DNA of 64,000 bases from positions 31,746,001 through 31,810,000 of the forward strand of contig NC_086097.1 in NCBI RefSeq assembly GCF_963921235.1. Direction: 5' to 3'. Every line of letters starts with the position of its first letter. Position 1 is the stretch's first letter. Below the pieces are notes generated by a model. That model was given only the letters and a program-made list of their open reading frames with translations, did no database searches and was not told where the DNA came from. This DNA is from Mobula hypostoma. Lineage: Eukaryota. Positions 3,280-50,298 of the stretch are shown here, piece by piece. A program made the position numbers and the translations under genes.

Positions 3280-6110
3280 AGAACCATAGAAACCATAGAA
3301 ACTACAGCATAGAAATAGGCCCTCTGGCCCTTCTTGGCTGTGCCGAACCATTTTCTGCCTAGTCCCACTGATCTGCACACGGACCAGATCCCTCCATACA
3401 CCTCCCATCCATGTATCTGTCCAATTTATTCTTGAATGTTAAAAAAGAACCCGCATTTACCACCTCGTCTGGCAGCTCATTCCATACTCCCATCACTCTC
3501 TGTGTGAAGAAGCCCCCCCTAATGTTCCCTTTAAACTTTTCCCCCCTCACCCCTAACCCACGTCCTCTGGTTTTTTTCTCCCATTGCCTCAGTGGAAAAA
3601 GCCGGCTTGCATTCACTCTATCTATACCCATCATAATTTTATATACCTCTAACAAATCTCCCCTCATTCTTCTGCGCTCCAGGGAATAAAGTCCTAACCT
3701 ATTCAACCTTTCTCTGTAACTGAGTTTCTCAAGTCCCGGCAACATCCTTGTAAACCTTCTCTGCACTCTTTCAACCTTATTTATATCCTTCCTGTAATTT
3801 GGTGACCAAAACTGAACACAATACTCCAGATTCGGCCTCACCAATGCCTTATACAACCTCATCATAACATTCCAGCTCTTACACTCAATACTTTGATTAA
3901 TAAAGGCCAATGTACCAAAAGCTCTCTTTACGACCCTATCTACCTGTGACGACACTTTTAGGGAATTTTGTATCTGTATTCCCAGATCCCTCTGTTCCAC
4001 TGCACTCCTCAGTGCCGTACCATTAACCCTGTATGTTCTACGTTGGTTTGTCTTTCCAACGTGCAATACCTCACACTTGTCAGTATTAAACTCCATCTGC
4101 CATTTTTCAGCCCATTTTTCCAGCTGGTCCAAGTCCCTCTGCAGGCTCTGAAAACCTTCCTCACTGTCTACTACACCTCCAATCTTTGTATCATCAGCAA
4201 ACTTGCTGATCCAATTTACCACATTATCATCCAGATCATTGATATAGATGACAAATAACAATGGACCCAGCACTGATCCCTGTGGCACACCACTAGTCAC
4301 AGGCCTCCACTCAGAGAAGCAATTCTCTACCACCACTCTCTGGCTTCTTCCATCGAGCCAATGTCTAATCCAATTTACCACCTCTCCATGTATACCTAGC
4401 GACTGAATTTTCCTAACTAACCTCCCATGCGGGACCTTGTCAAAGGCCTTACTGAAGTCCATGTAGACAATACCCACTGCTTTCCCTTCATCCACTTTCC
4501 TGGTAACCTCCTCGAAAAACTCCAACAGATTGGTCAAACATGACCTACCACGCACAAAGCCATATTGACTCTCCCTAATAAGCCCCTGTCTATCCAAATG
4601 CTTGTAGATTCTGTCTCTTAGTAGTCCCTCCAATAACTTACCTACTACTGACGTTAAACTCACCGGCCTATAATTTCCCGGATTACTTTTTGATCCTTTT
4701 TTAAACAACGGAACAACATGAGCCACTCTCCAATCCTCCGGCACTTCACCCGTAGACAGCGACATTTTAAATATTTCTGCCAGGGCCCCCGCAATTTCAA
4801 CACTAGTCTCCTTCAAGGTCCGAGGGAACACTCTGTCAGGTCCCGGGGATTTATCCACTTTAATTTTCCTCAAGACAGCAAGCACCTCCTCCTTTTCAAT
4901 CTGTACAGTTTCCATGGTCTCACTACTTGATTCCCTCAAGTCCATAGATTTCATGCCAGCTTCCTTAGTAAATACAGACGCAAAAAACCTATTTAAGATC
5001 TTCCCCATTTCCTTTGGTTCCGCACAAAGCCGACCACTCTGATCTTCAAGAGGACCAATTTTATCCCTTACAATCCTTTTGCTCTTAATATACTTGTAAA
5101 AGCTCTTTGGATTATCCTTCACTTTGACTGCCAAGGCAACCTCATGTCTTCTTTTTGCCCTCCTGATTTCTTTCTTAAGTATTTTCTTGCACTTCTTATA
5201 CTCCTCAAGCACCTGATTTACCCCCTGTTTCCTATACATTTCATAAAACTCCCTCTTCTTCTTTATCAGAGTTGCAATATCCCTTGAGAACCAAGGTTCC
5301 TTATTCCTATTCAATTTGCTTTTAATCCTGACAGGAACATACAAACTCTGCACTCTCAAAATTTCCCCTTTGAAGGCTTCCCACCTACCAATCACATCTT
5401 TGCCAGAGAACAACCTGTCCCAATCCATGCTTTTTAGATCCTTTCTCATTTCTTCAAATTTGGCCTTCTTCCAGTTCAGAACCTCAAACCTTGGACCAGA
5501 TCTATCCTTGTCCATGATCAAATTGAAACTAATGGTGTTATGATCACTGGAACCAAAGTGCTCCCCTACACAGACTTCTGTCACTTGCCCTAATTCGTTT
5601 CCTAACAGGAGATCCAATATTGCATCCCCTCTAGTTGGTCCCTCTATATACTGATTTAGAAAACTTTCCTGAACACATTTTACAAACTCTAAACCATCTA
5701 GACCCCTAACAGTATGGGAGTCCCAATCAATGTATGGAAGATTAAAATCTCCTACCACCACAACTTTATGTTTCCTGCAGTTGCCTGCTATCTCTCTGCA
5801 GATTTGCTCTTCCAAGTCTCGTTGACTATTGGGTGGTCTGTAATACAATCCCACTAATGTGGCCATACCTTTCCTGTTTCTCAGCTCCACCCATAAGGAC
5901 TCAGTAGACAAGCCCTCTAATCTGTCCTGCCTGAGCACTGCTGTAATATTCTCCCTAACAAGCAAAGCTACTCCCCCACCTTTCATTCCTCTGCCTCGAT
6001 CACATCTGAAACATCTGAACCCTGGAATATTAAGCTGTCAGTCCTGCCCCTCCTGTAGCCAAGTTTCACTAATTGCTACAACATCATAATTCCACGTGTC
6101 AATCCACGCC
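3280..6110 (-). mobile_element. CR1-clade LINE with near-complete, uninterrupted ORF2 (APE endonuclease + RT)
   Basis: 875-aa ORF 3359-5986 with [48 protein letters not shown] and CR1 C-terminal motifs; (ATGGTTTCT)n tail near 3280-3300. Confidence 0.95.
3359..5986 (-). CDS. CR1 ORF2 endonuclease/reverse transcriptase (5'-truncated, open for 875 codons)
   Basis: ORF track; complete RT motif set with no internal stops. Confidence 0.85.
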   Translation of the reverse strand: MKGGGVALLVRENITAVLRQDRLEGLSTESLWVELRNRKGMATLVGLYYRPPNSQRDLEEQICREIAGNCRKHKVVVVGDFNLPYIDWDSHTVRGLDGLEFVKCVQESFLNQYIEGPTRGDAILDLLLGNELGQVTEVCVGEHFGSSDHNTISFNLIMDKDRSGPRFEVLNWKKAKFEEMRKDLKSMDWDRLFSGKDVIGRWEAFKGEILRVQSLYVPVRIKSKLNRNKEPWFSRDIATLIKKKREFYEMYRKQGVNQVLEEYKKCKKILKKEIRRAKRRHEVALAVKVKDNPKSFYKYIKSKRIVRDKIGPLEDQSGRLCAEPKEMGKILNRFFASVFTKEAGMKSMDLRESSSETMETVQIEKEEVLAVLRKIKVDKSPGPDRVFPRTLKETSVEIAGALAEIFKMSLSTGEVPEDWRVAHVVPLFKKGSKSNPGNYRPVSLTSVVGKLLEGLLRDRIYKHLDRQGLIRESQYGFVRGRSCLTNLLEFFEEVTRKVDEGKAVGIVYMDFSKAFDKVPHGRLVRKIQSLGIHGEVVNWIRHWLDGRSQRVVVENCFSEWRPVTSGVPQGSVLGPLLFVIYINDLDDNVVNWISKFADDTKIGGVVDSEEGFQSLQRDLDQLEKWAEKWQMEFNTDKCEVLHVGKTNQRRTYRVNGTALRSAVEQRDLGIQIQNSLKVSSQVDRVVKRAFGTLAFINQSIECKSWNVMMRLYKALVRPNLEYCVQFWSPNYRKDINKVERVQRRFTRMLPGLEKLSYRERLNRLGLYSLERRRMRGDLLEVYKIMMGIDRVNASRLFPLRQWEKKTRGRGLGVRGEKFKGNIRGGFFTQRVMGVWNELPDEVVNAGSFLTFKNKLDRYMDGRCMEGSGPCADQWD

Positions 6111-10534: not shown

Positions 10535-10668
10535 TCATGTCTGATAGACATTTAGGAATTTTTCAAAGAGGTAACTAAGGGGATAAATGAAGTTAGGACA
10601 GTAGATGTTGTCTATATAAACTGTAGTAAGGACTTTGACAAGGACCTGCCTGGCAGGCTGATCTGAAC

Positions 10669-10891
10669 TGTTGTGTATGTGGCCTGGTTACACAACAATG
10701 CTATTAATAAAAATGCTGGAGACGGGAGCTAAGGTTCATGGTTCTTTACTGGCAGAAACCAAACTCAGCACACACGTACAGATCAATACGCGCCTAATAG
10801 TGCATGCTCAATATGCGCCCAGTAGCGCATTCAACGACGTGATACTAAAACTTAAAGTAGTCTCTTATTATACTGTAGGCTATATGGTACA
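10669..10891 (-). repeat. 3' LTR (223 bp)
   Basis: Direct repeat of 13761-13983; about 14 substitutions and no indels by manual alignment. Confidence 0.95.
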
Positions 10892-10904
10892 CTCCTCCCC
10901 TTTT
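10892..10904 (-). promoter_or_regulatory. Polypurine tract
   Basis: Minus-strand AAAAGGGGAGGAG directly abuts the 3' LTR. Confidence 0.9.
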
Positions 10905-11081
10905 ATTTTAATAGTGTATCAACTGTTTTTTTTACTGGGGCACTATGCTAAACAAATATGTTTACCCTTAACATACAAATGCCTACCGTTTGTTTACTTA
11001 GTAACTAAATAATATCAAACTAAAACAAAGTAACATAATAATATCAAATTAGCCTTTTTTTACTTTTGGTCTAAGATCCAT

Positions 11082-11135
11082 TTATAACTCGAGTCTCGGG
11101 GGGGGTCTTCTCTGCCTCTCTGGGTAATATCTGTC
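11082..11135 (-). pseudogene. Residual C-terminal tip of Gypsy pol (integrase end)
   Basis: Translates to DRYYPERQRRPPPRLEL*, resembling the RYPxRxRxPPxRL ending common in vertebrate Gypsy pol proteins. Confidence 0.6.
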
Positions 11136-11241
11136 AATAAATTTGTTTGTTTAAATACAGATTTCCATATAAAAGTCATGAAAAGTTGACCTCTGATCAT
11201 AGGGAGTTAAGAAGATGTGCGCCTCCAACTTGCTAAGAGTT

Positions 11242-12174
11242 CTAGGCAGCAGATTGCCTCCATATAATGAAGACTCCTCTGTGCAGCTGTACTAGATATA
11301 TATGCATCTTTGTGCTATCACTTGTCTTCTTTACCCATATCTCATTTGTTCCAACTGAGCTAATTACACAGCCAATCTTCATATTTGCCTTAGATTCCAA
11401 ATAGATAGCCTGACCTTTATGATACCATCTCTTATCGTAATATAACTTTCCATCTTCTATTCGTGCTTCATATCTTTGTGCTACTGATTCAGCAGGAATG
11501 CTGGGAAGATGCTCAGGAGAAGACTGAGTCTTTTCGGAGATTTAAGCTTATTGCAAGTTCACAGATCTTCCATTATCTGTTCATCTGTCTGTTAATAAGT
11601 AATTTAACTGCGCAGGTGCAGGTTTTTGTCTTTTGTCTGTAATTGGAACAGGGTCATTGGGTCTCCTCCTTAGTTTCCTAGTCATTATTGGCTTTACCTC
11701 CATAGAATCTCCTGTGAGTTCCATTGTTAGCCTCTCATTCTCAATCATCTTTTTCTTTTCTTCTAACTCAATTGTTTTATCTTCAAATTCCTTCACTGCT
11801 GCTTTCTTCTCTTTAATATAATTCCTTTCCACTTGTTCTGTCTCCAGTTGCAGAAAAAGCTCTGCATTTCGTATTCTTTCCTTGTATTGTTGATCTAGTT
11901 TCTTCATCCTTTTCTGATACTCCTGCAAAGTGCCTTCCTGTAACTGCTGTAGCTATCTTTTGAGAGACGTCAATTTCTCCTGGTACATCTGCTCTTTTAC
12001 TTCCAGGTAGTCTTCATTATCCTGCTTATTGGCAATATCTGTCTCACTTGCATCCTCTGTATCTTCATCTGAGTCATGGCCACGGATACTGCATTCATCC
12101 TCATCGTCGACACTGTCTAGCTCCTCATCGTCATTGTAATAGTCGACAATGGGTGAGAAGAGAGCTGCAGACAT
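11242..12174 (-). pseudogene. SUDS3: Processed (intronless) SUDS3/SDS3 retrocopy, full CDS length, disabled
   Basis: Reads MSAALFSP...[13 protein letters not shown]...[73 protein letters not shown]...[27 protein letters not shown]...[19 protein letters not shown]...RQSAA*, recognisable as vertebrate SDS3. Stop at 11953-11955; frameshifts near 11585 and 11525. Confidence 0.95.
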
Positions 12175-12199
12175 CTTCCCTGCCGAGCTGCCCTCCTTT

Positions 12200-13380
12200 G
12201 TTGACACATCTAGTGCCTTGATGTTGTACCAATCCAACTGGATTTTCCTGAGCCATTCACGTCCCAGCAATGATGGTCCTCCATTTTTCAGTACATAGAG
12301 GTGCAGCTGCTGTGTTTTATCTCCACAGGTCACTGTCACTTTAATTTTGCCTCCGGGATGCACTTTCTGTCCTGTGTAAGTCTTTAGTAGAAGGTTAGTT
12401 CGTTTCAGAGATAGGTGCGAAAACAGTCGTTTGTAGTCATGTACAGAGATCACTGTTAAAGCTGGGCCTGTGTCCAACTCCATTTTCAGTCTCACGCCCA
12501 CCACTTGTGGAGTGATCAATATTACTCTTCGATCATCTGTCTCTTTCACGCTGTGAAGTTGCCAACAAGACAATTCACTTTCATCGGAGTCGTTTTCATC
12601 AGAACTGCCTTCTTTCATTTTGTGTACCTTGTTTTATTTTCCCTTCTGGGGTTTCTTGTTTCTCTGTATTTTGCCCTTATTCTGCTGTTTACTAGCTTTT
12701 CATACTCTGCCAATGTGGCCCCGTTTGCCACAGTTTCTGCATTCTTTGTCTTTAATTCAACAGTCATCTGGGTCATGTGACCTGTTCCCACAATGGTAAC
12801 ATTTCTTTCCTTCATTCCTGTTCAGTGACATTTTATTTGTGGCATATTCCAGAGACTTCTGTTGTATCTGGGAAGCACCCCATGCCGCTGTTTCTGTTGA
12901 TATTGCAATGTTTAGCGCTTTCTCAAATGTAAGGTCTCTTTCACACAGAAGCTTCTTCTGTGTGGTTTCATGGTGCATGCCACACACTAACCTGTCCCTC
13001 AATGCATCTGACAGACCAGCTCCAAATTGACAATGTTCTGATAATTTGCACAATTCAGCACAATATTCAGAAATGCTTTCATTTTTGCTCTGATTCTGTT
13101 TGTGAAATTTAAATCTTTCAGCAATGACCAGTGGTTTGTGGTTTAAATGCTGTTGGAGGGTGTCTACTATTTGCTTGAACGTTTTGTCAGCTGGCTTTTC
13201 AGGAATTAACAAGCTCTGTAGCAGACCGTATGTTTTTGCTCCCATCATACTGAGTAAGACGCTGACTTTCTTTTCATCATTAACACCATTAGCCTCACAA
13301 TATGACTCTACTCTCTCAATGTAGGTTGCCTAGTCTTCAATGCCACTATCAGATGCTGTAATGGTTCCAATCATCGCCAT
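12200..13380 (-). pseudogene. Gypsy gag + aspartic protease, one frame with 4 internal stops
   Basis: ATG at 13380 (MAMIGTI...), [66 protein letters not shown]. Confidence 0.92.
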
Positions 13381-13746: not shown

Positions 13747-13757
13747 CCTCGTCGCCA
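13747..13757 (-). promoter_or_regulatory. Primer-binding site, probably tRNA-Ser(GCU)
   Basis: Minus-strand TGGCGACGAGG 3 nt after the 5' LTR; complementary to the ...CCUCGUCGCCA 3' end of vertebrate tRNA-Ser(GCU) as recalled. Confidence 0.85.
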
Positions 13758-13760
13758 ATT

Positions 13761-13983
13761 TGTTGTGTATGTGGCCTGGTTACACAACAATGCTATTAAT
13801 AAAAATGCTGGAGACGGGAGCTAAGGTTCATGGCTCCTTACTGGCAGAAACGGAACTCGGCACACACGTACAGATCAATATGCGCCTAATAGCGCGTGCT
13901 CAATATACGCCTAATAGTGCATTCAACGACGTGTTACTAAAACATAAAGTAGTCTCTTATTATACTGTAGGCTATATGGTACA
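13761..13983 (-). repeat. 5' LTR (223 bp)
   Basis: Direct repeat of 10669-10891, followed by the PBS. Confidence 0.95.
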
Positions 13984-14569
13984 TGAACGATTCAGTTGTA
14001 TGAGTGAAGTAGTTTCAGAGGTTGGCTGATACTAGAACTAGAGCTTCTAGTTCGAGTTCTAGGTTAAGGGTGAAGGATGAAATAGTTAAGGGAACCTGAG
14101 GGGGAACTTCTTCCAACAGATGGTGGTGCAAGTGTGGATTGAGCTGCCAGCAGAAGTGGTGAATGTGGGTTTGATTGCAACATTTTTAGAGAAATTAGGT
14201 TAAAGTTCATGGATGGGAGGGATATGGAGGCCTATGGCTCAGATACAGAATGACTGTTCGTTGTGGATTAGGTAGGTCTATTTCTGTGCTCTAGTCCTCC
14301 AACTCTGTGACTATAACTCTACCCAACCTCTCCCTCCAGAATTTCCTTGAGTCCTGGCACTATCGTCATAAATCTTCTCTGCATTCCTGAGCAATTGGCA
14401 AAATGCAGGAGGAACTCAGCAGGTCAGTCCCGATGAAGGGTCTTGACCCAAAACATTGACTGTCCATTTCCATCCATAGATGCTGCCTCACCTGCTGGGT
14501 TCCTCCAGCATTTCATGTGGAGGGAGGGAGGGAAGGATGGAAGAAAAGAAGGAAGGAAGGCTGGCTTTA

Positions 14570-31584: not shown

Positions 31585-31785
31585 AAGGTGACCAGGCTGG
31601 AGGAGGAGGTCATGAAGCTGAACAAGCAGGTGGTGAGTCAGAGCAAGCTGTACCACGAGGCGATGCGCCGAGCGCGGAGGGCCGAGGAGCAGCTGAGTGA
31701 TCGCGAGGAAGTCCTCAGCCACCTGGAAGGACAACTTGCCACCAAGAGTCTGCTCAAGGATGGACATCAGTTTGAGAGGCAGAGG
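31585..31785 (+). CDS. CCDC170: CCDC170-like coiled-coil protein, coding exon A (201 nt)
   Basis: ttggcag|AAG ... AGG|gtgagt; KVTRLEEEV...[15 protein letters not shown]...LSHLEGQL...FERQR resembles CCDC170 HQKALQRAQKAE...LTHLEAEL...FEKQK. Confidence 0.8.
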
Positions 31786-31799
31786 GTGAGTGAGGTACA

Positions 31800-32815
31800 T
31801 CTTCAGTACCACTCGTCCCACAGTGTGACTCTCCCTCAGTACCTTCTCTCCTACAGTGTGACCCTCCCTCAGTACCACCCCTCCCACAGTGTGACCCTTC
31901 CTCAGTACTACCCCTCCTACAGTGTGACCCTTCCTCAGTACCACCCCTTCCACAGTGTGACCCTCCCTCAGTACCTCCCCTCCCACAGTGTGACCCTCCC
32001 TCAGTACCTCCCCTCCCACAGTGTGACCCTTCCTCAGTACTACCCCGCCTACAGTGTGACCCTCCCTCAGTACCACCCCTTCCACAGTGTGACCCTCCCT
32101 CAGTACCTCCCCTCCCACAGTGTGACCCTCCCTCAGTACCTCCTCTCCCACAGTGTGACCCTTCCTCAGTACCACCCCTACCACAGTGTGACCCTCCCTT
32201 ATTACCGCTGCTCCCACAGTGTGACTCTCCCTCAGTACCTCCCCTCCCACAGTGTGACCCTCCCTCAGTACCTCCTCTCCCACAGTGTGACCCTTCCTCA
32301 GTACTACCCCTCCCACAGTGTGACCCTCCCTCAGTACCTCCCCTCCCACAGTGTGACCCTTCCTCAGTACTACCCCTCCCACAGTGTCACCCTCCCTCAG
32401 TACCAGCCCTACCACAGTGTGACCCTCCCTCAGTACCTCCCCTCCCACAGTGTGACCCTTCCTCAGTACAACCCCTCCCACAGTGTGACCCTTCCTCAGT
32501 ACTACCCCTCCCACAGTGTGACCCTCCCTCAGGACCACCCCTACCACAGTGTGACCCTCCCACAGTACCACCCCTCCCAGTGTCACCCTCCCTCAGTACC
32601 TCCCCTCCCACAGTGTGACCCTTCCTCAGTACCACCCCTCACACTGCGTGACCCTCCCTCAGTACCACCCCTCCCACAGTGTGACCCTCCCTCAGTACCT
32701 CCCCTCCCATAGTGTGACGCTCCCACAGTACCTCCCCTCCCAGTGTCACCCTCCCTCAGTACCTCCCCTCCCACAGTGTGACTCTCCCTCAGTACCACCC
32801 CTCCCAATGTGACCA
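31800..32815. repeat. 30-bp minisatellite, about 33 copies
   Basis: Unit CCTCAGTACC(A/T)CCCCTCCCACAGTGTGACCCT(C/T)-type repeated head to tail. Confidence 0.95.
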
Positions 32816-33564
32816 TGCAGCGCACACTTATCTCCACACAGGACTCGTCTCTGGATGTGACTCGAATTTGTGATCTTTTGATAACATTGACTCTGATTCA
32901 GGAAGCCAGCACAAACTGAAAGCCACCTTTCAAAATGAGTTCTGTGGAGCCCCTGGGGATCCCTTGGGAAGAGATCTTGCTGGTGTGTAGGGAACGGGTT
33001 TAGAGATCCCTCCTTGGTACGCATGGAAGTAGATCTCAGAGGGTAGAACTTCCTGCCTCGTTCTCTTTCTGATCCTGAGGAGCACTGAGAGTTGAGTGAT
33101 GAGGAGCTCTGTCAAAAGACCAGCACAAGCACAGTGGACTGAATGGCCTTGCCCTGAATCACTCTGGATGTACTTGCCATTCTGGAAGGCTGATTTTGCC
33201 GGCAGTGTTTTCAATACTTGTAGTGCACTCAGTGACTTTGACTAGAGCGTTGCCTCTCATCACCTCTGCCTTTTTGGTTGTTTATCTTTCCCTGAAATGA
33301 ATTCAAGGAATATCAATTTGAACTGCTGTTTTTTAAAAAAAATTAGCTCACCTACTTGCTCATTTGCCATTTAATTTACTTCAATGTAAACGTCAGAGAG
33401 GATGCTGTTATATAACACACTGCTTCACAAAATATCACTCAGCAGAAGAACATAAAAATTGGGAACATATTCTCACTCAAGCAATCATTTAAAGTTTTGA
33501 ATCATCTTCTACTTCAGTGGAATCTTCCAGCACCATCCAATTTTCCTCAACTCCTTATGATACG

Positions 33565-34600
33565 ACCATGAGACATAGGAGCAGAATTACACTGTTTGAC
33601 CCGTCTGGTTCTTTCTCCCACTTGATTGTGGCTGATTTGTTATCCCACTCAACCTCACTCTCCTGCCTTCTCCCTGTAACTTCTGATGCCCTTACTAATC
33701 TAGAATCTATCAACCCCTGCTTTAAATATCCCAGTGACATGGTCTCCACAGCCGTCTGCGGCAATGAATTCCACAGATTCACTACCCTCTGGCCGAAGAA
33801 ATTCCTCCTTATCTCTGACCTACAGGGATGTCCTTGTATTCTGAGGCATGGCCCTCTGGTTCTGGACTCCCCCGATACTGGAACCATCCTCTCCATGTCC
33901 ACACTACCTAGACCTTTCAACATTCAATAGGTTTCAATGAGAATCCCCCCTTCATTTTCCTAAACTCCAGTGAGTACGGGCCCAGAGCCATATGTTGAAA
34001 GATTGGAGCTACTGGGGTTGTATACACTGGAATTTAGAAGGATGAGAGGGAATCTGATTGAAATATATAAGATTATTAAGGGATTGGACACACTAGAGGC
34101 AGGAAACATGTTCCCGATGTTGGGGGAGTCCAGAACCGGAGGCCACAGTTTAAGAATAAGGGGTAGGCCATTTAGAACGGAGTTGAGGAAAAACTTCTTC
34201 ACACAGGGAGTTGTGGATCTGTGGAATGCTCTGCCTCAGAAGGCTGTGGAGGCCAATTCTCTGGATTCTTTCAAGAAAGAGTTAGATAGAGCTCTTAAAG
34301 ATAGCGGAGTGAAGGGATATGGGGTGAAGGCAGGAAAAGGGTACTGATTGTGGATAATCAGCCATGATCACAGTGAATGGTGGTGCTGGCTCGAAGGGCT
34401 GAATGGCCTACTCCTGCACCTATTGTCTATTGTCTATTGTCATTCAGCGGTCTGCATACATTAACCATTTCATTCCCGGGATCACTTTCATAAACTTCCT
34501 CTGGGTCCTCTCCAATGCCAGCTCATCCTTTCTTACATATGGGGCTCAAAGTGCTCACAAAACTCCAAATGTGGTCTGACCTCATCATTCTAGTCCTCTT
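33565..34600 (-). mobile_element. CR1 3' fragment with a nested + strand CR1 3' end (~33990-34440)
   Basis: ORFs 33555-33923 (-) and 33970-34347 (+); the latter closely resembles the 8860-10040 subfamily. Confidence 0.85.
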
Positions 34601-35741
34601 AAAATGAAAGCTCTGACGATCTATATCCCTCCATTTCCAGCACATTCATGTGCCTGTCTAACAGCCCTTAAATGCCTCTGCCACCACCCCCAGCAGCACA
34701 TTCCAAGCACCCACCAGTCTTTATGTAAAAAAACGGCCACACGCATCTCCTTTGAAATTTCCCCCTCTTAGCTTAAATGCGCGCCCTCTATTAGTCATTT
34801 CGACCCTGGGAAATAGGAACCAGCTGTCGATTCTATCTGAGCTTCTCATAGCCTTATACACCTCTATTAGGTCTCCCTTCAGTCTCTGCCTCTTCAGTGA
34901 AAGCAATCCAATTCTATCCAACCCCTCCTTATAGCTCATACCCTCTGATGCAGGCAGTGCCAGCTGTGCCTGCTTTTTGGTCAGCTACGTCGAACAGTCC
35001 ATGTTCACTGGAAACGTGTCCCCAGCTTTTTCTGTGCTCAGCATGGGTGATGCTTCCTGCAGTCTCCTGCTGGGCTCATCAATTTCATCAACTTTGCCTT
35101 CAACTTCCACCCTGCCCTTAAATTTATTTGGTCCACCTTGGACACCTCTTCTCTCTCTCTCTCTGGAGGCACATTCAATAGGTTTCAATGAGATTCCCCC
35201 CCCCCCCTCATCTCTCTCTCTCCCTCCCTCCATCTCTGTTATCTTTTACAAACCTACGGGCTCTCACAGCAACCTTGACTGTACCACTTCCCACCCAGCC
35301 ACTTGTGAAAACACTATTCCCTTTTCTCATTTCCTCCGTCTCCGCCGTATCTGTTCTCGGGATAGAGCTTCCCGTTCAAGAACAGCATTTTGTGTGTGGT
35401 GCTCTGGACTCCCAGCATCTGCTGAGTATCTTGTGTTTATCATCCTGGTGAACCTCTCCAAAGCCTCCACATCCTTCCTACGTGGCATCCTGCTTCCATG
35501 GCATGCATTCCAGGCACCCACCACTCTCACCTGACCCGCATATCTTTAAACTTTCCCTCCTCACCTTAAATCTATGTCCTCAAGTATTTCACATATCCAC
35601 CTGAGGAAAATGAGTCTGACTATCAACTCTATCTATGCCTCTAATCATCTTAGAACCAGGTCTCCCCTCACTCTCTGCCACTACAGTGAAAATAACCCAA
35701 GTTTGTCCAACCTCTTCCTTAAGCTAAAACTCTCTAATCCA

Positions 35742-35893
35742 CAAAATGCTGGAGGAACTCAGCAGGCCAGGGGCATCTATGAAAAAAAATACTCTACTTC
35801 TTCCCATAGATGCTTTCTGGCCTGCTGAGTTCCTCCAGTATTTTGTGTGTGTTGCTTGGATTTCCAGCATCTGCAGATTCTCTCTTGTTTGTG
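35742..35893. mobile_element. Palindromic PLE-derived mini-element (centre deleted)
   Basis: Inverted arms; exact 13-bp TSD ACTCTCTAATCCA at 35729-35741 and 35894-35906. Confidence 0.8.
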
Positions 35894-36222
35894 ACTCTCT
35901 AATCCAGGCAGCAACCCGGTGAACCTCTTCGACACTATCCCCAAAGCCTCCGTGTTCTTCCAGTAATTGGGCAGCCATACAGTGTTCCAAATGTGGTCTA
36001 ACCAAAGCTTTATACAGCTTCATATATGCTTAATGGTGCTACAGGGAGACTCCTGGGGTGAAGACTGAGTGATGGGAAGGAGGCTGGTGAAGTGCAGGAA
36101 CACTATACCATGATTTCAGCCAGTTGGCAAGCCCGAGTTTTGCCTCTCCCTGTTGACCCTGCACCTTATTTTTGTTCTCTGTTGCCCTTGAGAATCTCTC
36201 ATGTTATTTTGCTCTCTCTCAG

Positions 36223-36396
36223 CACACCAAATTCCTGCATGGGCTAGCCCAAGCGATGAACGTGGAGCGAGACGAGCAGATGGATGACCTGGAGGACCAG
36301 GCCGAGAAGCTGCTGGCCAGGGCTCGAGCGCTGGCAGAGATTGAGCGGGAGAGGACAGACGACAGCAACGCGTTCCTACAGAACCTGCAGCAAAAG
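36223..36396 (+). CDS. CCDC170: CCDC170-like coding exon B (174 nt)
   Basis: ctctctctcag|CAC ... AAG|gtcaca; HTKFLHGLAQAMNV...LLARARALAEIE...QNLQQK resembles YLKFLDQLSQKMKL...VLARTEQLVRLE...HNLQRK. Confidence 0.8.
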
Positions 36397-36689
36397 GTCA
36401 CAGTCCAACCTAGCAGCTGCCTGCTGTTTACTGTTGCTGTTGGTACAGAGAGAACGGCTTCACTATAATGATAACTCCCGAGAACCCGAGGTCACACAAC
36501 TGTGCACACCTTAACCCCTTAACCCCCTAGCCCTAGTCCAAAGTCAGCAAGTGAAGCCTATTCACAGTCTGTTTCTAGTGTGTTGTTAAATCGAACCAAT
36601 TTGGAATCATCTTTATCCAAGAATATGGCTTTATTTACAAAATGCTTCATCAAGTAACAATCTATTTCCATGTTTTTAGAAGGATAGTT

Positions 36690-37610
36690 TACAGGGAGCT
36701 TCACTGAGTGTCTGACCTCCCAGAATGGGATGGAATGGTGTAGAGGAAGCTGTGTCTCAACCCAGGAATATGGGACAGTGTAGAGGGATCTTCACTCTGT
36801 ATCTGATGCTGGGAGTATGTGTTGGGACAGTGTAGAGGAAGCTTCACTCTGTGTCTCAACCCAGGAATATGGGACAGTGTAGAGAGATCTTCACTCTGTA
36901 TCTGATGCTGGGAGTATGTGTTGGGACAGTGTGGATGGAGTTTCACTGAGTGTCTGACCCCAGGAATATATGATGGGGCACCGTGGAGGGATCTTCACTC
37001 TGTATCTGACCTTGGGAGTGTGTGCTGGGACAGTGTGGAGATGGCTTCACTCTGTGTCTGATCCCAGGAGTGTGTGATGGAACAATGTGGAGGGACCTTC
37101 ATTGTGTGTCTAACCCCAGGAGTGTGTGTCAGGATAGTGTGGAGGGAGCTTCAGTCTGTGTCTGACCCCAGGAATATGTGATGGGGCACTGCAGAGGGAT
37201 CTTCATTCTGTATCTGACCCTGGGAGTGTGTGTTTGGAGAATGTGGAGGGAGCTTCATTGTGTGTCTAACCCCAGGAGTGTGTGCCAGGATGGTGTAGAG
37301 GGAGCTTCATCTGTGTCTGACCCCGAGAATGTGTAATGGGGACAGTGAGACAGTGTGGAGGGAGCTTCATTGTGTGTCTAGCCCCAGAAGTGTGTGACAG
37401 GACAGTGTAGAGTGAGCTTCACTCTGTGTCTGATGCTGGGAGTGTGTGATGGGACAGGGCAGAAAGAGCTTCACTCTGTGTCTAAGCCAGGTCTTTCTCA
37501 TTTTCGGAGTGTCTGATAGGATAATGCAGAGTGGTTTCTAATCTGTGTGTTGCCCCTGCCCCAGGAGTGTGGAGGGGACGGTGTAGAGGGAGGCTTACTC
37601 TGCAACTGAA
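36690..37610. repeat. ~46-bp tandem satellite
   Basis: Unit approximately GGGAGCTTCACTCTGTGTCTGACCCCAGGAGTGTGTGATGGGACAGTGTAGA. Confidence 0.9.
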
Positions 37611-40600
37611 CTGGGCTGACCCTGCCGTGGGAGCAAGTGACAGGGGAGTTTAGATGGTGATTTGCTCTAAGTCAAAGCTGCACGGTTTGCTTGCTGGAAA
37701 CAGTTTGTAGCTGCCTATGTCCTGGTATCAGGCACACATCACGTTGTGTATCGATGTGCAGATTGTCATCTCCTTTTCATCCTCTTGTTGACCACAGCAT
37801 GAGGCAGTTTGCAGTGAAGGTGTTGTGAAAAAGCCACAATTAGGGAAAGCAGATAGACTAATCAAGCTAGGAGTTTTCTCTTTAAAACAAAGAAGGATGA
37901 AAGGTGACCTGATAGAGGTGTGCGTGATGATAAGAGGCGTTGATAGAGTGAATAGTCAGAGACCTTTTCCCAGGGTAGGAATACCTTCCGCGAGGGGGCA
38001 TAGTTTTAAGATAATTAGAGGAAGGTATAGGGTGGATAAACAGAGTGAGGAGAGTGTATGGAACACCCTGCTCAGGGTGGTGGTGGAGACGTTTAAAAGA
38101 CTCTCAGACAGGCACACAGATGATAGATAAGTGGAGGTCTATGTGGGAGGGAAGCGTTAGATTGATCTTAGAGTCAAAGGTTCGGCGCAACATCGTAGGC
38201 CAAAGGGCCTGTACTGTGCTGTACTGTTCTACTGTATTTTCAGAGAAAGATCCCAAACCATCAAACACCTGGGAGTCATTTAAAAGCCCGAAGTCAGGGG
38301 CACAATGTTCATGGAGGAACAAAGGCAGGGATGGCAAGGTTTGGTAATTGTTAATGATGAGCATTTTACAAATTTAGCCATGAAGAAAAAAAAGCGATAG
38401 GAAAGTTCCCTGAGTTATAGGGAAAAGTTGAATAGTTTAGGACTATATCTCCTGGAGTGTAGGAGATTGAGAGGAGATTTGATATACAAAGTTATGAGGG
38501 GTATGGATAGGGTAAGTGCAAGCAGGCTTTTTCCACTGAGGTTGGGTAAGACTAGAACCTGAGGTCATGGGTTAAGAGAGAAATGTGAAATATTTAAGAG
38601 GAACATGAGGGGACACTTAAGACCATAAGATACAGGAGCAGAATTAGGCCATTTGGCCCATCAAGTCTGCTCCACCATTTCATCATGGCTGATCCATTTT
38701 CCCTCTCATCTCCAATCTCCTATAAGACCATAAGAATCTCCTGTAAGACCATAACATCCTCACTCAGAAGGTGGTGCAGGTGTGGAACGAGCTGCCAGTG
38801 GAAGTAGTTGATGTGTGTTCAACTAGAACATTTAAGCAAGTTTGGATAAGCAGGTGAATGGGAGCGATATGAAGGGATGTGGTCCAGGTGTAGATGGATG
38901 AGACTGGGCACAGGCTGGATGGACTGAAGAGCCTGTTTCTGTCCTGTGGTGCTCTATGATTATGACTCTCATCAATTTTAGTAAATTAGTGTGCCTTTAG
39001 CAAATGCATTTAAGATGTGTTTAAGATCCAGGGAATTGAGGGATGTGGATCACATGCAGGCGGATGAAATTAGTTTAAGTTGTCTCCACAATCACGGGCT
39101 GAAGGGCCTGTATTCTATGTTCAATACATGGAACCAGGATCAGTCAGCTTCCCTCGAAGAACATTTAGGCTGAGCTGCTGGAGGTAATTAAACCCACTTT
39201 GTACAGCTTGCAGGCTTTGAACAGGTGATCTATTCACTTCGAGAGGCTGAAGCCTCTAATAAACTGTAATCTTCGCCTTTACAAGCACTTAGTTAGACTA
39301 GAACATGGAGTACTTTAAAAATAATTTTCCACGATTCTTCACTCCAATCCAAGCCTTCAAATTTGCTTCAACCTCCGTGGGGTCAGAGAGGAGTGCTGCT
39401 GACGTGAACCCATCCCCTCTCACCCACTTGCCTCGATGTTTACCAGAGAGAGGGAAAGGGCTCTGCTCTGTTAATCCATTCTCTGAGGGTTATAGCAGGT
39501 ACAACAGCTGCAGGTGTGACATTTAATATGCTGTATTGACCCCAGAAGAAAAATATCACTGCATTTTTGAGTAATTGATGGGCTGAGGAAGAGCAACACA
39601 GTAAAAGGTCCCCAGGTTTGGCTTTTTGCATCCGCTTTGGTTAGGTGTATTGTTACACAAGGCTCACTGATTAGGCTAAAGCCATCGGGTTGAGGTAAAT
39701 AATATGCATTAATGTTGTTATGGCTCAGATTTCACGTGCCCCCCTCCTTTGGAAAGGCGCCAAAGGTTTAAACTTGCAGAAAAACACATCAGATCGCTGC
39801 ATCTCCCAGCTTAAAGTTCAACCATTCATTTAAAAGACTCATTCACATCGCTCGAGAAATTTAGATCCAGCTATGAGTCACAGAAAAAGACACACAGAAA
39901 AAGACCCACACAGACCCTCCCCAGTCCTTATGGAGGGTCTCGGCCCAAAACTTCCCTCCATAGATGCTGCCTGACCTGTTGAGTTCCTCCAGCATTTTGG
40001 GTGCATTGCTATGGAAGCACATCTGTTGGCCCCATTCGCCCACGTCAAACTCACCCACCCAAGCTAGCCCCATTTGCCTGCATTTGATATCTTTCTAGTT
40101 TAACTTGCCTTCATGATCATGGGCCGAAGGTCCTACTCCATGTCCAATGTTCCTGTCCAAATGTCATAGAGTACTAGTCTTTTGAAACATGAAGATACCT
40201 ATCTCTACCTCTTTCTCCTGCAGCTTGTTCCCTGTACCTACCACCTTCTATCTGCCCTTCATGTCCCTTTTAAATCTTTCCCCTCTCTGGAACATCGAAC
40301 AGCACAGTACAGGCCCCTTGACCCACTATGTGGTTGTGTAGACCTTTTAGCCTGCTTCAAGATCACTCTAATACTTCCCTTAGCTTTTGAGGGCGGATCT
40401 ATTCAAAACATTGCACTGGGGGTGGGTGCTCCTACGTAGCCCTCCATTTTTTTCCCATCTAGGTACCTAGTAGTGTGAATCCTGAGGCACCTGTACCTTC
40501 TACCCGATGGCAGCAGCGAGAAAAGATCATGGCCTGGGTGGTGAGGATCTTTGATGGTGGATGCTGCTTCTCTACGGCGATGTTTCATGTAGATGTGCTC

Positions 40601-41388
40601 AGTGGTTGGGACGGGTTTACTCGTAATGTACTTGGCTGAGTCCACTACTGTTTGTAGGGTTTTCTGTTCAAAGGCAGTACGGGTGAGAGGGAGAGAGAGA
40701 CGTCGAGAATGATAGAAAAGATAACAATTCACTTTATTTGTCACACATACATTGAAACATACAGCAAAATGTGTTGTTTGCGTCAACAGTGTGAGGATGT
40801 GCTGGGGGCAGCCCACAAGTGTTACCATGCTTCAGGTGCTGAAACAGCATGCCCGCAACTTACTAATCCAAGCCTGTATGGCTTTGGAAACTGGAGCACC
40901 CAGAGGAAACCCACGTGTCCATGGGGAGAGGTACAAACTACTTATAGACAGTGATGGGAATTGAACCCCAGATGCTGATGCTGTTAAGTGTAACAGCGAG
41001 TGCTATGCTACCAAACCCCCACCCCTGGTGTAAAGTATGGAATAGATTTGCTCTGACAAACTAATCGGGGACTGTTTGTGGGGTAACGGACGTAATTCGT
41101 GCAGTGATTTCCCTGTAGACATTAAAGGCTGTAGATACTAGAGTCTGGAGCAACACACAAAGACACTGGAGGAACTCAGCAGGTCAGGCAGCATCTGTGG
41201 ACGGGAATGGACAGTCGGTGTTTCTGGCCGAGATCCTTCTGGTGTACTCAGCCCAGAAGAAGGATCTGGACCCAAAATGTAGACTGTACATTTCCCACCA
41301 CAGATGCTGCTTGACCCTGAGTTCCTCCAGCACCCTTTGTGTGTCACTGCAGTGGTCCCCCTGGCTCACTCCCACCTCTCACTGACAG

Positions 41389-41613
41389 GTGACATCTCAG
41401 AGGGAGAGGCTGGCCAGCAGTAAGCGGCACGTCCAGCTCCTGACCGACAGACTCAGCCAGCTGGAGGGGAGGGAGCCGCCGGGCCGGGATGGGCAGGGTG
41501 GTGGGCTGGCCGAGCTGCGGAAGGACGTGGAAAGGCTGCAAGGACAGCTGGATGTGGCGAAGAGGAAGAACCGCAGCCTGAGAGAGAAGAACGAGGAAAT
41601 CACAGCTCTGAAG
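41389..41613 (+). CDS. CCDC170: CCDC170-like coding exon C (225 nt)
   Basis: gacag|GTG ... AAG|gtaagg; VTSQRERLASSKRHVQLL...LRKDVERLQGQL...ITALK resembles LKTQKERLESKELHMSLL...LQKKVERLQKEL...TNELK. Confidence 0.85.
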
Positions 41614-42256
41614 GTAAGGGGGCAGGGGTTCCGGTGTGGAAGGGGCCTTGTGTGGGGGCATCTGGTGTGTGGAGGGGATACAGTGTGGGAGATCTTTCGT
41701 CGGAGGGATCTGGTATGGGTGCGATCTTGTGTGGGGAGATCGTGGGGTGGGGGGTCTAGTACAGGAGGGATCTGATGTGGGGGTTGGTGTTGGAGATCTG
41801 ATGTGGGAATCCAGCATTGAGGGATCCAGTGTAGATTCAATAAGTGTGAGGGGATCCTGTTTAAGGAGTTGCAGAAGGGATCTACAGATCCATTTGGGAG
41901 ATGGAAAACACAGATACCCATGGATACACACGTTTACACACACAGATATATGTGTACCCTCAGTTACACACATTTTCATAGATACACATTGATACATGGG
42001 CTCATCGATACACTGAGGAACACCATGCTTTCTCACATCCTGCATATTAAGATATAGATATATACATGCCACACAATGTAGCTCAGTGTGCATACATTCA
42101 CATCCACGTACACGCGTGTGTAGGGGCACCTGGTGTTGGCAGTTCTCTTCAGCCGCCTTGCCCTCTCCACAACCCAATGCCTCATGGGGCAGAGGTTGTG
42201 ATGGGGATGGGCATTAACTCCAGGGACTAGATTTCCAATGGTGATTCTCTCCCCAG

Positions 42257-42493
42257 GCAAAGAACAGGGAGCAGGACCGGACCATCCAGAGGCTTAGGGA
42301 ATCGCTGGAGAAACTGGAGTCGATCAAGGATAAAGCGGCCCGCAAGGTGGTGATGCTGACTTCCGAGCTGGACCAGGCAGAGCAGGGAGCCTTGGAGAGG
42401 AGCAGCCAGGCCCAGAGCTTGAACCAGGCCCTCAGCAATGAGCTCCACTCTGCCAGGAAAGCCCTGGAGGTGGTGGCACGTAGGGAGAGGCAG
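42257..42493 (+). CDS. CCDC170: CCDC170-like coding exon D (237 nt; missed by the ORF track)
   Basis: tctctccccag|GCA ... CAG|gtggga; AKNREQDRTIQRL...LESIKDKAARKVVMLTSELD...ARKALEVVARRERQ resembles IKTLEQTKAIEDL...LEKMKEKAEKKLMSVKSELD...KKSLEEAEKREKQ. Confidence 0.85.
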
Positions 42494-43257
42494 GTGGGAG
42501 TTGCTACTAAACCTTAAGATAATGTTTCTGAGGCATAAGGATCCCCCATTCGTCTAACCTCCAGCGAGTACAGGCCCAGAGCCATCAACACTCCTCACAC
42601 ATTAACCCTTTCATTCCCAGGATCTCATAAACCTCTTCTGGTTCCTCTCCAATGCCAGCACATCCTTTTTTAGATAAAGGGGCCAAAACCGCTTACAATA
42701 TTCCATGTGCAGTCTGACCGATGCTTTATAAGGGCCTCGGTGGTGGAGCTGGTGGAAGGTGATGACACATCATAATGGTAGAGTGAAGGTGCAGGAAATC
42801 TGCTGCTGAGGAGGGTCCCCGGTCATTCTGCATTCCATGCCACTGTGCCCTGACACCATTCCGTCAAGCACCGCATGCCTATGTAACCTCAGACTCCCCG
42901 CGTTAAACAGCGACACGCATAGGTATTCTCCATTAAGGGCGTCCACCTTAACATCCTGGATGTGAATCCCGAATCAGCCTCTTCACCCACTAATCGACAA
43001 CCCCTTCGCTTAGGAGGGCATCATACCCAATCCAAGTGATTGCTCTCCTACTACTAAAGACTCAGCTTTACATCCTTGCTTTTATATTCTAGTCCTCTTG
43101 AAATGAATGCTAACATTGTATTTGTTTTACTCAACCTGCAGCTAACCTTTAGGGAATCTTACATGAGGATGCCCAAGTCCCTTTGCACTTCCAATTTCTG
43201 AATTTACACTCCATTTATAAAATAGTCTATGCCTTTATTCCATCTACCAAAGTTCAT

Positions 43258-45447
43258 GACATAGAACATAGAACATAGAATGGTACAGCACAGTACAGGC
43301 CCTTCGGCCCACAATGTTGTGCCGACCCTCAAACCCTGCCTCCCATATAAGCCCCCACCTTAAATTCCTCCATATACCTGTATAATAGTCTCTTAAACTT
43401 CACTAGTGTATCTGCCTCTACCACTGACTCAGGCAGTGCATTCCACGCACCAACCACTCTCTGAGTAAAAAACCTTCCTCTAATATCCCCCTTGAACTTC
43501 CCACCCCTTACCTTAAAGCCATGTCCTCTTGTATTGAGCAGTGGTGCCCTGGAGAAGAGGCGCTGGCTATCCGCTCTATCTATTCCTCTTATTATCTTGT
43601 ACACCTCTATAATGTCTCCTCTCATCCTCCTTCTCTCCAAAGAGTACAGCCCTAGCTCCCTTAATCTCTGATCATAATGCATACTCTCTAAACCAGGCAG
43701 CATCCTGGTAAATCTCCTCTGTACCCTTTCCAATGCTTCCACATCCTTCCTATAGTGAGGCAACCAGAACTGGACACAGTACTCCAAGTGTGGCCTAACC
43801 AGAGTTTTATAGAGCTGCATCATTACATCGCGACTCTTAAACTCTATCCCTCGACTTATGAAAGCTAACACCCCATAAGCTTTCTTAATTACCCTATCCA
43901 CCTGTGAGGCAACTTTCAGGGATCTGTGGACATGTACCCTGAGATCCCTCTGCTCCTCCACACTACCAAGTATCTGGCCATTTACTTTGTACTCTGCCTT
44001 GGAGTTTGTCCTTCCAAGGTGTACCACCTCACACTTTTCCAGGTTGAACTCCATCTACCACTTCTCAGCCCACTCCTGCACCCTATCAATGTCTCTCTGC
44101 AATCTTTGACAATCCTCTACACTATCTACAACACCACCAACCTTTGTGTCATCTGCAAACTTGCCAACCCACCCTTCTACCCCGACATCCAGGTCGTTAA
44201 TAAAAATAACGAGAAGTAGAGGTCCCAGAACAGATCCTTGTGGGACACCACTAGTCACAATCCTCCAATCCGAATGTACTCCCTTCACCACCACCCTCTG
44301 CCTTCTGCAGGCAAGCCAATTCTGAATCCACCTGGCCAAACTTCCCTGGATCCCATGCCTTCTAACTTTTTGAATAAGCCTACCGTGTGGAACCTTGTCA
44401 AATGCCTTACTAAAATCCATATAGATCACATCCACTGCACTACCCTCATCTATATGCCTGGTCACCTCCTCAAAGAACTCTATCAGGCTTGTTAGACATG
44501 ATCTGCCCTTCACAAAGCCATGCTGACTGTCCCTGATCAGACCATGATTCTCTAAATGCCTATAGACCCTATCTCTAAGAATCCTTTCTAACAGCCTTCC
44601 CACCACAGATGTAAGGCTCACTGATCTATAATTACCCGGACTATCCCTACTACCTTTTTTGAATAAGGGGACAACATTCGCCTCCCTCCAATCCTCCGGT
44701 ACCATTCCCGTGGACAACGAGGACATAAAGATCCTAGCCAGAGGCTCAGCAATCTCTTCTCTTGCCTCGTGGAGCAGCCTGGGGAATATTCCGTCAGGCC
44801 CCGGGGACTTATCTGTCCTAATGTATTTTAACAACTCCAACACCTCCTCTCCCTTAATATCAACATGCTCCAGAACATCAACCTCACTCATATTGTCCTC
44901 ACCATCATCAAGTTCCCTCTCATTGGTGAATACCGAAGAGAAGTATTCATTGAGGACCTCGCTCACTTCCACAGCCTCCAGGCACATCTTCCCACCTTTA
45001 TCTCTAATTGGTCCTACCTTCACTCCTGTCATCCTTTTTTTCTTCACATAATTGAAGAATGCCTTGGGGTTTTCCTTCACCCTACTCGCCAAGGCCGTCT
45101 CATGCCCCCTTCTTGCTCTTCTCAGCCCTTTCTTAAGCTCCTTTCTTGCTTCCCTAAATTCCTCAATAGACCCATCTGATCCTTGCTTCCTAAACCTCAT
45201 GTATGCTGCCTTCTTCCACCTGACTAGATTTTCCACCTCATTTGTCACCCATGGTTCCTTCACCCTACCATTCTTTATCTTCCTCACTGGGACAAATTTA
45301 TCCCTAACATCCCGCAAGAGATCTCTTAACATCGACCACATGTCCATAGTACATTTTCCTGCAAAAACATCATCCCAATTCACACCCGCAAGTTCTAGCC
45401 TTACAGCCTCATAATTTGCCTTTCCCCAATTAAAAATTTTCCTATCC
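43258..45447 (-). mobile_element. Young CR1 LINE, 5'-truncated, single nonsense codon in RT
   Basis: ORFs 44055-45383 and 43329-44054 are in one frame separated by one TAG (W*MEF); (CTATGTT)n tail. Confidence 0.95.
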
Positions 45448-45516
45448 CAAATGTATGACTATACACTTTGCGACACTATCCCATATTCCAATCCTTTGCC
45501 CATGAGACATTGGAGC

Positions 45517-45741
45517 AACACACACAAAATAATGGAGGAACTCAGCAGGCCAGGGAGTTTCTATGGAAAAGAGTAAACAGTTGATGTTTCAGGCCGAGAC
45601 CCTTCATCAGGACCAGATGAAGGGTTTCAGCCCCGAACTTCGACTGTACTCTTTTCCATAGATGCTGCCTGGCTGCTGTTCCTGCGGCATTTTGTGTGTG
45701 TTGCTTTGGATTTCCAGCATCTGCAGATTTTCTCCTCTTTG
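45517..45741. mobile_element. Palindromic PLE-derived mini-element, degenerate
   Basis: Inverted arms around CCTTCATCAGG...ATGAAGGG; imperfect flanking repeat TGAGACATTGGAGC / TGAGATGTAGGAGC. Confidence 0.7.
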
Positions 45742-47108
45742 TGAGATGTAGGAGCCGAGTTAGGCCACTTGGCCTTCGAGTCTGCTCCACCATTTCCAGT
45801 GTGGCTGATTTATTTTCCCTCTCAACCCCATTCTCTTGCCTTATCCCTGTAACTCATGACACCCTGACTAATCAGTAACCGATCAGTCCTTTTAAATGTA
45901 CTAAATGACTTGATCTCCACAGCTGTCTGTGACAATGATTCATCACCCTCTGGCTAAAGAAATTCCTCCTCATCTCTGTTCTAAAGGGGCATCTTTCTAT
46001 TCTGAGGTTGCGTCCTCTTTCGATATTCGGTAGGATTCAATGAAAATCCCCCCCTTATTCTTCTCAACTCCAGTGAGTACAGGCCCAGAGAAATTAAATG
46101 CTCCTCAGACACTATGTTACCCTTTCATTCCCACGGTCATTTCTGTGACCCTCTCCAGTGCCAGCACACCCTTTCTTAGATAGGTGGGCCAAAACTGCTC
46201 ATGATACTGACCAATGCTCAGACAGCAGGGGAACAAGCCCTGCGGTCCAGCCAGCCTGTGCTGACCGTGAGGTCCATCAAAGGTTTACCAGGATGCTGCC
46301 AAGACTAGAGGCTATGAGCTATGAGCAGAGGCCGGACAAACTTTCTCTGCAACGGTGGAGGCTGAGGGGAGCTCTGAAAGGGGTATGCAAAATCATGAGG
46401 GGTATAGACAGGGTAAATGCAAGCAGGCTTTTTCCACTGAGGTTGGGTGAGACTGGAACTAGGGGTCACGGGTTAAGGGTATCAGGGGAAATGTTTAAGG
46501 GGGAACTGGGGCGGGGGGAGTTTCTTCTTTTAGAGCGTGTTGCGAGTGGAACAAGCTGCTGGCGGAAGTGGTGGTTGCAGGTTCAGTTGCAACATTGAAG
46601 AGAAGTTTGGATAAGTACATGGATGGGAGGGGTGTGGAGGGCTGTGGTCCGGGTCTGGGCCGATGGGGCAAGGCAGAATAACAGTTCTAGATGGGCTGAA
46701 GGGCCTGTTTCTGTGCTGTAGTGCTCTCTGATTCTATGATCTATGAGAAGCGTAGATAGGGGTAAGCAGCTGGTATGGCAATGTCTCATTCCAGTGGGCA
46801 TGCATTTAAAGTGAAAGAGAATAAGTTCAAAGGAGAAGTGCAGGCAATTTGTTTACACAGAGATTGGGGGTGCCTGGAGCGCGCTGCAGGGATGGTTGTG
46901 GAGGCTGAGATGATAGAGGCACTTAGGCGCATGGATGTACAGGAAGTGGAGGGATATGGACACTGTGTAGGCAGATGCATTAGTTCAGTCAGACATTTAT
47001 TTACCGACGCAAACAACAGGAATTCTGCAGATGCGGGAAATTCAAGCAACACACATCAAAGTTGCTGGTGAACGCAGCAGGCCAGGCAGCATCTCTAGGA
47101 AGAGGTAC

Positions 47109-47144
47109 AGTCGACGTTTCAGGCCGAGACCCTTCGTCAGGACT
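47109..47144 (-). ncRNA. Minimal type I hammerhead ribozyme motif (inverted arm)
   Basis: Minus strand AGTC-CTGACGA-AGG(GTCTCGG)CCT-GAAA-CGTC-GACT. Confidence 0.8.
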
Positions 47145-50262: not shown

Positions 50263-50298
50263 AGTCCTGACGAAGGGTCTCGGCCTGAAACGTCGACT
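50263..50298 (+). ncRNA. Minimal type I hammerhead ribozyme motif
   Basis: AGTC/GACT stem I, CUGACGA core, AGG/CCU stem II, GAAA, palindromic ACGU in place of stem III; predicted cleavage after GUC at 50294. Confidence 0.8.

Follow-up and report, generated by a model that had tools for sequence, protein, structure and literature searches.

An LTR element on the minus strand of the window (the whole stretch of 64,000 nucleotides of the Mobula hypostoma genome that was analysed) is a decayed, non-autonomous Ty3/Gypsy copy that carries the spliced mRNA of the host gene SUDS3 where reverse transcriptase (RT), RNase H and integrase would otherwise be encoded. In the explanation that we favour, the spliced host mRNA likely joined the element by two template switches inside a particle, the product likely spread in a single burst on the enzymes of pol-bearing sisters, and SUDS3 was likely carried as a passenger. 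The founder would have made a 713-residue Gag-protease-SDS3 protein, and its RNA would have been packaged together with helper RNA. Its roughly 2:1 edge over the helper may have come from having a shorter RNA (3.3-3.5 kb, with about 4.9 kb for the helper) while still producing its own Gag. This explanation is backed by the spliced cargo, the identities at the switch points, the single 5' junction, the independent insertions, the star-shaped tree, the neutral decay and the existence of pol-bearing sisters.

The element is complete from 13983 to 10669 (Table 1). It shows the TG..CA LTRs, primer site, polypurine tract and 5-bp target duplication of a Ty3/Gypsy element together with a Gypsy-related Gag-protease, and the priming tRNA is presumably Ser-GCU. 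In a search with the whole piece, the first 402 codons matched P0122, a single-ORF Gypsy polyprotein with RT, RNase H and integrase domains, at 59% over 403 aligned residues (E=5e-156). These three enzymes are absent from the element and present in its sisters, so it is not an autonomous Ty3/Gypsy element. The SDS3 part matches devil-ray SDS3 at 83% (E=1.8e-156), and its best named matches are Mobula proteins. Pfam returned weak Gag-type matches, gag-asp_proteas (E=1.3e-5) and Sds3 (E=5.9e-4) on this copy, with scores below the curated cut-offs because the pieces are broken, and it is the searches with whole pieces that decide the identification.

Table 1. Features of the SUDS3-bearing element in its reading direction, with positions in the window
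Feature	Position	Strand	Remarks
5-bp target-site duplication, upstream copy	13984..13988	-	five identical bases flank both element ends
5' LTR, 223 nt, TG...CA	13761..13983	-	209/223 identical to 3' LTR, gap-free; K2P 0.066
Primer-binding site	13747..13757	-	3 nt behind 5' LTR; TGG start here and in most copies
gag, two CCHC-type zinc knuckles (about 12801-12700)	12640..13380	-	3 stops inside, a fourth at codon 249 just beyond
Aspartic protease, DTG motif 12474-12466	12247..12507	-	PF13975 E=1.3e-5; aligns to Gypsy polyprotein P0122
5' switch point	12187..12196	-	7 identical bases (9/10) between host 5' UTR and protease-RT linker of pol-bearing sisters
Host SUDS3 5' UTR, 12 nt, read as four linker codons	12175..12186	-	12-nt spacer in 58/64 copies
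Spliced SUDS3 CDS, 12 exons, native start and stop	11242..12174	-	exon-by-exon match to host gene
Site where all copies lack 24 nt (8 codons) of the coiled coil, between a pair of 6-nt repeats	11764..11770	-	region covered by PDB 4ZQA
Host 3' UTR, 113 nt, cut within UTR, no poly(A)	11130..11241	-	3' switch point 11135-11130 (short form)
Last pol codons (non-coding here) and element 3' untranslated region	10905..11129	-	pol-bearing sisters match from 11135 on
Polypurine tract	10892..10904	-	purine run directly before 3' LTR
3' LTR	10669..10891	-	223 nt
5-bp target-site duplication, downstream copy	10664..10668	-	same five bases as upstream copy

At this locus the fusion frame is interrupted by stops at codons 17, 208, 227 and 249 in gag and at codon 476 in the cargo. 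Near codon 600, a +4 insertion (about 11584) and a later -7 deletion (about 11527), both private to this copy, put about 19 codons out of frame. One further stop lies in the true cargo frame, so that the cargo has 2 internal stops in total. A preliminary description of the locus had placed the gag ATG (13380) and the SUDS3 ATG (12174) 1206 nt, or 402 codons, apart in one frame of the minus strand, had let the protease run straight into SDS3 and had called the copy dead. The distance and frame are as given, the run into SDS3 is seen in the translation, and the copy is indeed dead, with stops in gag-protease and cargo and the two frameshifts. That one frame extends from Gag through most of SDS3 is correct if stops are ignored, but the two compensating frameshifts had gone unmentioned. 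The polyprotein of about 720 residues proposed there is close to the predicted length of 402+311=713. The 24-nt deletion in the SDS3 cargo was missed there, and the large size of the family was not visible from this one locus.

The host SUDS3 gene has 12 exons over 59 kb (G000:C78:8380526-8439661). It was located by an exon-6 pattern which in its intact form occurs once in the whole genome, in the host gene, about 1 Mb from an SRRM_C match; a search for the SRRM_C neighbour gave two matches and did not locate the gene directly. All 11 introns have been removed from the cargo and every exon junction is exact, including those of the 20- and 22-nt exons. Intron 7 of the host gene (G000:C78:8395737-8398853) is of the AT-AC, minor spliceosome type, and it is precisely gone as well.

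The host match starts 14-22 nt from the ATG in 64/64 copies, which is a shared 5' junction. Host 5' UTR and protease-RT linker are identical over 7 nt at this switch, which by chance lies 12 nt before the host ATG and so kept the reading frame. The 3' end lies at host position +1073 in 34/64 copies (short form), at +1302 in 25/64 (long form) and elsewhere in 5/64. Microsimilarity amounts to 7 nt at the short 3' switch and is weaker at the long one. The short form holds helper sequence that is absent from the long form, and therefore a further template switch is needed. Between the two junctions about 2.7 kb of pol has given way to the cargo, and pol sequence resumes some 17 codons short of where the polyprotein match ends.

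Copies of the family were sought in the 3.48 Gb genome. The query with the whole element matched at 37/37 loci scored, and of 475 first-look candidates for the cargo alone, 40 were scored and 40/40 matched at full length. The genome contains 212 occurrences of a 17-base junction pattern (0 for the control); the pattern is exact in 31/64 sampled copies, which leads to an estimate of about 440 copies. The sample of 64 copies is biased towards well-kept ones: 30 were picked for their whole-element score, 31 for their cargo score, and 3 came from further down the whole-element list. Two LTR matches were found in 40 of the first 50 loci, with an exact target duplication in 21/40 and at most one mismatch in 29/40, and the 33 LTR pairs that align over 150 columns or more have a median distance of 0.11. 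The copies examined in this genome probably come from a single capture followed by a burst of the element. The single dead copy that the preliminary description had named as the outcome speaking for a one-off capture is excluded, as copies have multiplied with their cargo, and the in-frame join reported there for one copy is the state of the family, with a 12- or 9-nt spacer in 60/64.

A whole-genome search with the polyprotein P0121 found the pol-bearing sisters. They share the LTR, show 84-90% identity over the gag-protease matches and depart from the element at window positions 12187 and 11135. Their own junction pattern has 113 occurrences, corresponding to about 200 copies (exact in 8/14 sampled). 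Cargo-bearing junctions thus exceed pol-type junctions by 212 to 113, about 2:1, an excess that a useful cargo would give in the same way. Shared variants are more frequent in gag-protease (27) than in the cargo (3; p=1e-4), and 12/27 also segregate in pol-bearing copies. This excess and the helper sequence in the short 3' form point to recombination with helper RNA. Among the 120 matches listed of 400 in a search of long proteins with Gag-protease, the Sds3 domain was absent, which counts as weak evidence.

The founder probably had one open frame of 713 codons for Gag, protease and SDS3, because the lesions are scattered among the copies and none is fixed. The spacer between protease and cargo measures 12 nt in 58/64 copies and 9 nt in 2/64, and differs in the other 4/64 because of private indels. 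Among the 64 copies neither a stop nor a frameshift is fixed, no frameshift is widely recurrent, and the recurrent stops fall on CpG hotspots. The commonest gag-protease stop (34/60 cargo copies, 9/14 pol-bearing copies) was rejected as a founder stop, as it lies on a CpG hotspot and its carriers do not group together on the tree (23 changes, with 23.9 after shuffling, p=0.42). We infer that the founder made the fusion protein because Gag and protease share the frame of the cargo in this single-ORF lineage. Today none of the 64 copies is open throughout the fusion, nor is any of a further 12 copies examined, and the 64 copies have on average about 4 lesions in gag-protease and 3.5 in the cargo. 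As every examined copy is broken, the genome is not expected to make a fusion protein today.

There was no selection on the cargo after insertion. Private changes outside CpG sites comprise 1172 non-synonymous or stop changes and 429 synonymous ones, giving a dN/dS of 1.00 and a stop rate of 1.01 of neutral. The cargo tree is star-shaped, its host branch measuring 0.010 and its tips 0.028 on average, and therefore capture and burst were close in time. A star tree offers almost no branch on which selection could show, so that the selection test has little power, and a branch-model dN/dS was dropped because the internal branches are almost nil.

Compared with the host gene, 2 non-synonymous and 6 synonymous differences outside CpG sites, and 4 synonymous ones at CpG sites, are common to at least 75% of copies. 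At face value this gives a dN/dS of 0.12 from host gene to family (p=0.006), which is what the dN/dS comparison of parental SUDS3 with the consensus, proposed in the preliminary description, would yield. The ratio is low because synonymous changes that the host itself acquired later are counted, and this host-side drift accounts for it. Over the same time the host gene is expected to have gained 6.9 synonymous changes. In host-type contigs of other organisms, the six synonymous sites show the element state at 4 and the host state at 1, and the remaining 1 is seen only in the nearer-looking organism. These contigs may be mosaics, although two of the sites have host-type letters within 31 bases. 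The branch from capture to burst then keeps about 2 amino-acid changes and 1-2 synonymous ones, which fits neutrality and is too few to speak against selection. The comparison is a warning case, since a host-to-family dN/dS can look strongly purifying though host drift explains it. Shared gag-protease variants lean to third positions (15/27, p=0.035); this may reflect selection on the helper, as 12/27 are common to pol-bearing copies.

Two further changes affected the cargo. Eight codons of exon 6 are missing in 64/64 copies (62 scored directly, 2 by alignment), and this deletion preceded the burst. The deleted stretch, unchanged from chimaera to mammal, lies within the coiled coil solved as PDB 4ZQA, which gives the Sin3 complex its dimerisation according to the parts consulted of PMC8800102, and without these eight residues the heptad register would be displaced. 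Annotated SDS3-like proteins of two Mobula species show the same deletion, and the family is therefore likely older than their split.

The second change is an antisense piece of RNF213, with about 930-960 nt of coding sequence including the RING region, in the SUDS3 cargo at codon 223. It defines a subfamily (L029:567-1508, also L099, L100 and L116-L125) with at least 32 members, as its junction matched 32 times when one mismatch was allowed, and the insert shows a 10-nt identity at either end. One copy holds a shorter RNF213 insert of 441 nt. In 9/10 copies read, the insertion ends the frame 13 codons past cargo codon 222, which removes the capped Tudor domain and keeps the coiled coil and the Sin3-binding segment. 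No diagnostic substitution was found in gag-protease or cargo codons 1-222 of 13 copies, and for this reason the subfamily gives no branch for a selection test. The coiled-coil deletion and the spread of the truncated subfamily count against a need for normal SDS3. The truncated subfamily is nonetheless compatible with a use of SDS3, as the protein can be supplied in trans and the key segments are kept.

A role for the SDS3 part is unproven, and we hold it to be unlikely that it was used as a protein. The foremost alternative to a passenger cargo supposes that SDS3 lacking part of its coiled coil, either freed by the protease or still attached to Gag, acted as a decoy or poison subunit of the Sin3L-HDAC complex, eased the silencing of the element and so let it out-copy the helper two to one. 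We regard this as improbable, though several observations would suit it. The whole CDS with its native stop is in frame in 60/64 copies, the sole fixed deletion keeps the frame and strikes the dimerising coiled coil, where it could equally make a poison subunit, and cargo copies exceed helpers about 2:1. Junction and deletion would both keep the frame by chance 1 time in 9, which we counted against the passenger cargo, while the third event breaks the frame. Plant elements encoding anti-silencing proteins (VANC) are a precedent, as far as described in the excerpts consulted of PMC13317346. Against these points, no synonymous excess is left once host-side drift is removed, the cargo tree lacks internal branches, the truncated subfamily arose in the same burst and spread, no cleavage site was identified and the family did not persist. 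The possible use of SDS3 suggested in the preliminary description is therefore not supported by any sign, though the selection test has little power: private changes are neutral, eight residues were lost and a truncated form multiplied.

The cargo might also have helped as RNA, an idea to which we give even less credence. Small-RNA silencing directed at a sequence almost the same as an essential host mRNA would be costly to the host, and with the frame open as far as the native stop the 3' UTR would be short and the RNA more stable. Outside CpG sites the cargo differed from the host mRNA by no more than about 1% when the burst took place, a conflict between silencing an element and sparing its donor gene is in print for maize (parts consulted of PMC13317346), and the spread of a subfamily with a second host piece (RNF213) would fit. 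However, gag, protease and LTRs stay open targets for silencing, and the truncated subfamily spread despite its long 3' UTR.

It is very unlikely that the host domesticated one or a few of the copies into functional SDS3 retrogenes. Open SDS3-like proteins of 292-321 residues are annotated in Mobula birostris and M. hypostoma, and one presumed-RNA contig of the deletion type (X2) shows no changes of its own over 396 nt, but that contig may have been assembled as a mosaic from words of both host mRNA and element. Stop-free cargo occurs in 4/63 copies against a Poisson expectation of 9.5%. The four copies tested that have an open cargo frame show N:S counts of 14:9, 19:8, 15:10 and 20:7, none below neutral (p 0.11-0.61), and all have a broken gag-protease. 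The two lowest N shares among the 64 copies (p=0.011 each) fail correction for 64 tests. Neither the complete lack of copies open through the fusion (0/64) nor the dN/dS of 1.00 is what functional retrogenes show.

A processed pseudogene made by a LINE and inserted in an existing LTR element, or a one-off locus, has next to no chance of being the origin. In its favour, the window is rich in LINEs apparently of CR1 type, and non-LTR elements are held responsible for vertebrate retrocopies generally in a preprint (10.64898/2026.06.26.734816, in the parts consulted). But the cargo has no poly(A) and no duplication around it, stops within the 3' UTR of the host, stands where 2.7 kb of pol would be and is joined at short identities at both ends, and the junctions together with the hundreds of copies that share them refute such an origin.

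The passenger cargo that we favour has relatives among known systems. LTR-mediated retrocopy is itself already known, and what is unusual here is the scale and the whole CDS in frame with Gag-protease. The oncoproteins of acute transforming retroviruses take the form of Gag fusions. MC29 and avian erythroblastosis virus resemble the present family in that a host gene replaces viral genes and the product is defective and helper-dependent (PMC3186009, in part). Unlike acute transforming retroviruses, the present family derives from a Ty3/Gypsy element without env, and no selection on its cargo was seen. If the decoy interpretation were true, a host silencing subunit would have been turned against the host, and the element would be to retrotransposons what a gag-onc virus is to retroviruses, with chromatin silencing as its target.

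The LTR-mediated retrocopies of Tan et al. 2016, as far as described in the sections consulted of PMC5131818, likewise consist of spliced mRNA within a discontinuous LTR element, with microsimilarity at the switch points, secondary retroposition with shared switch points and later capture of a second gene. Of four features of that class, three are present here, namely the discontinuous flanking element, the microsimilarity and the secondary retroposition. The retrocopies of Tan et al. are often partial and their quoted copy numbers small, whereas this family has the whole CDS in frame with Gag-protease and, at about 440, more copies than its helper. Maize Bs1 is also a non-autonomous LTR element, with host exons from several genes and switch points common to all copies, but it numbers 1-5 copies, contains only parts of genes and has a chimeric protein that has been described, in contrast to hundreds of dead copies and a putative fusion protein here (PMC5131818 and PMC13317346, parts consulted). 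Plant TR-GAG elements similarly have Gag and protease between LTRs and no RT, RNase H or integrase; that class was defined in plants and without cargo (PMC6022998, in part), whereas here the host is an animal and pol was replaced by host mRNA and not just deleted.

SUDS3 is among the top retrocopy parents of cartilaginous fishes in the parts consulted of the preprint 10.64898/2026.06.26.734816, which ties retrocopy numbers to non-LTR elements; no explanation of the SUDS3 retrocopies by LTR capture was found in those parts. The main text of the manta and devil ray genome preprint has 0 mentions of SDS3 or SUDS3. We found no published description of this family in a literature search that covered few subscription journals and, for bioRxiv preprints, the papers without their supplements. 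A calibrated substitution rate was not found in the literature, and the burst is given no date in years. A single LTR capture can yield hundreds of apparent retrocopies of an essential gene, and some open copies are annotated as SDS3-like genes in devil rays.

Four presumed-RNA contig sets bear on the fourth feature of LTR-mediated retrocopies, transcription that starts in the LTR and runs through the junction. They cover the element, and the junction is crossed in 2/4 among the pieces listed; strand, start and level are not readable from them. The X4 contig (window 11641-12260) crosses the protease-SUDS3 junction and keeps the 24 nt missing from all genomic copies examined, and is either an assembly mosaic containing host mRNA or derives from an older state of the element that a different species retains. 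The X2 contig (window 11665-12193) is the one without changes of its own, and if not a mosaic it may be a conserved copy in another species.

The window also contains five exons of a CCDC170-like gene (residues 395-766) at 31585-50970 on the plus strand. Earlier exons of this gene were not found within the window, and therefore the element may sit antisense in a long intron. Just behind a CCDC170-like exon lies a tandem array with a 33-nt unit in about 28-36 copies (31675-32863), and a 52-nt tandem array is found at 36775-37491. LINE copies with long open frames, which we take to be CR1-type, are located, among other places, at 3359-6037 on the minus strand (892 aa) and at 44055-45458, and an RT stretch at 47699-49689 is presumably Penelope-like or GIY-YIG-type.
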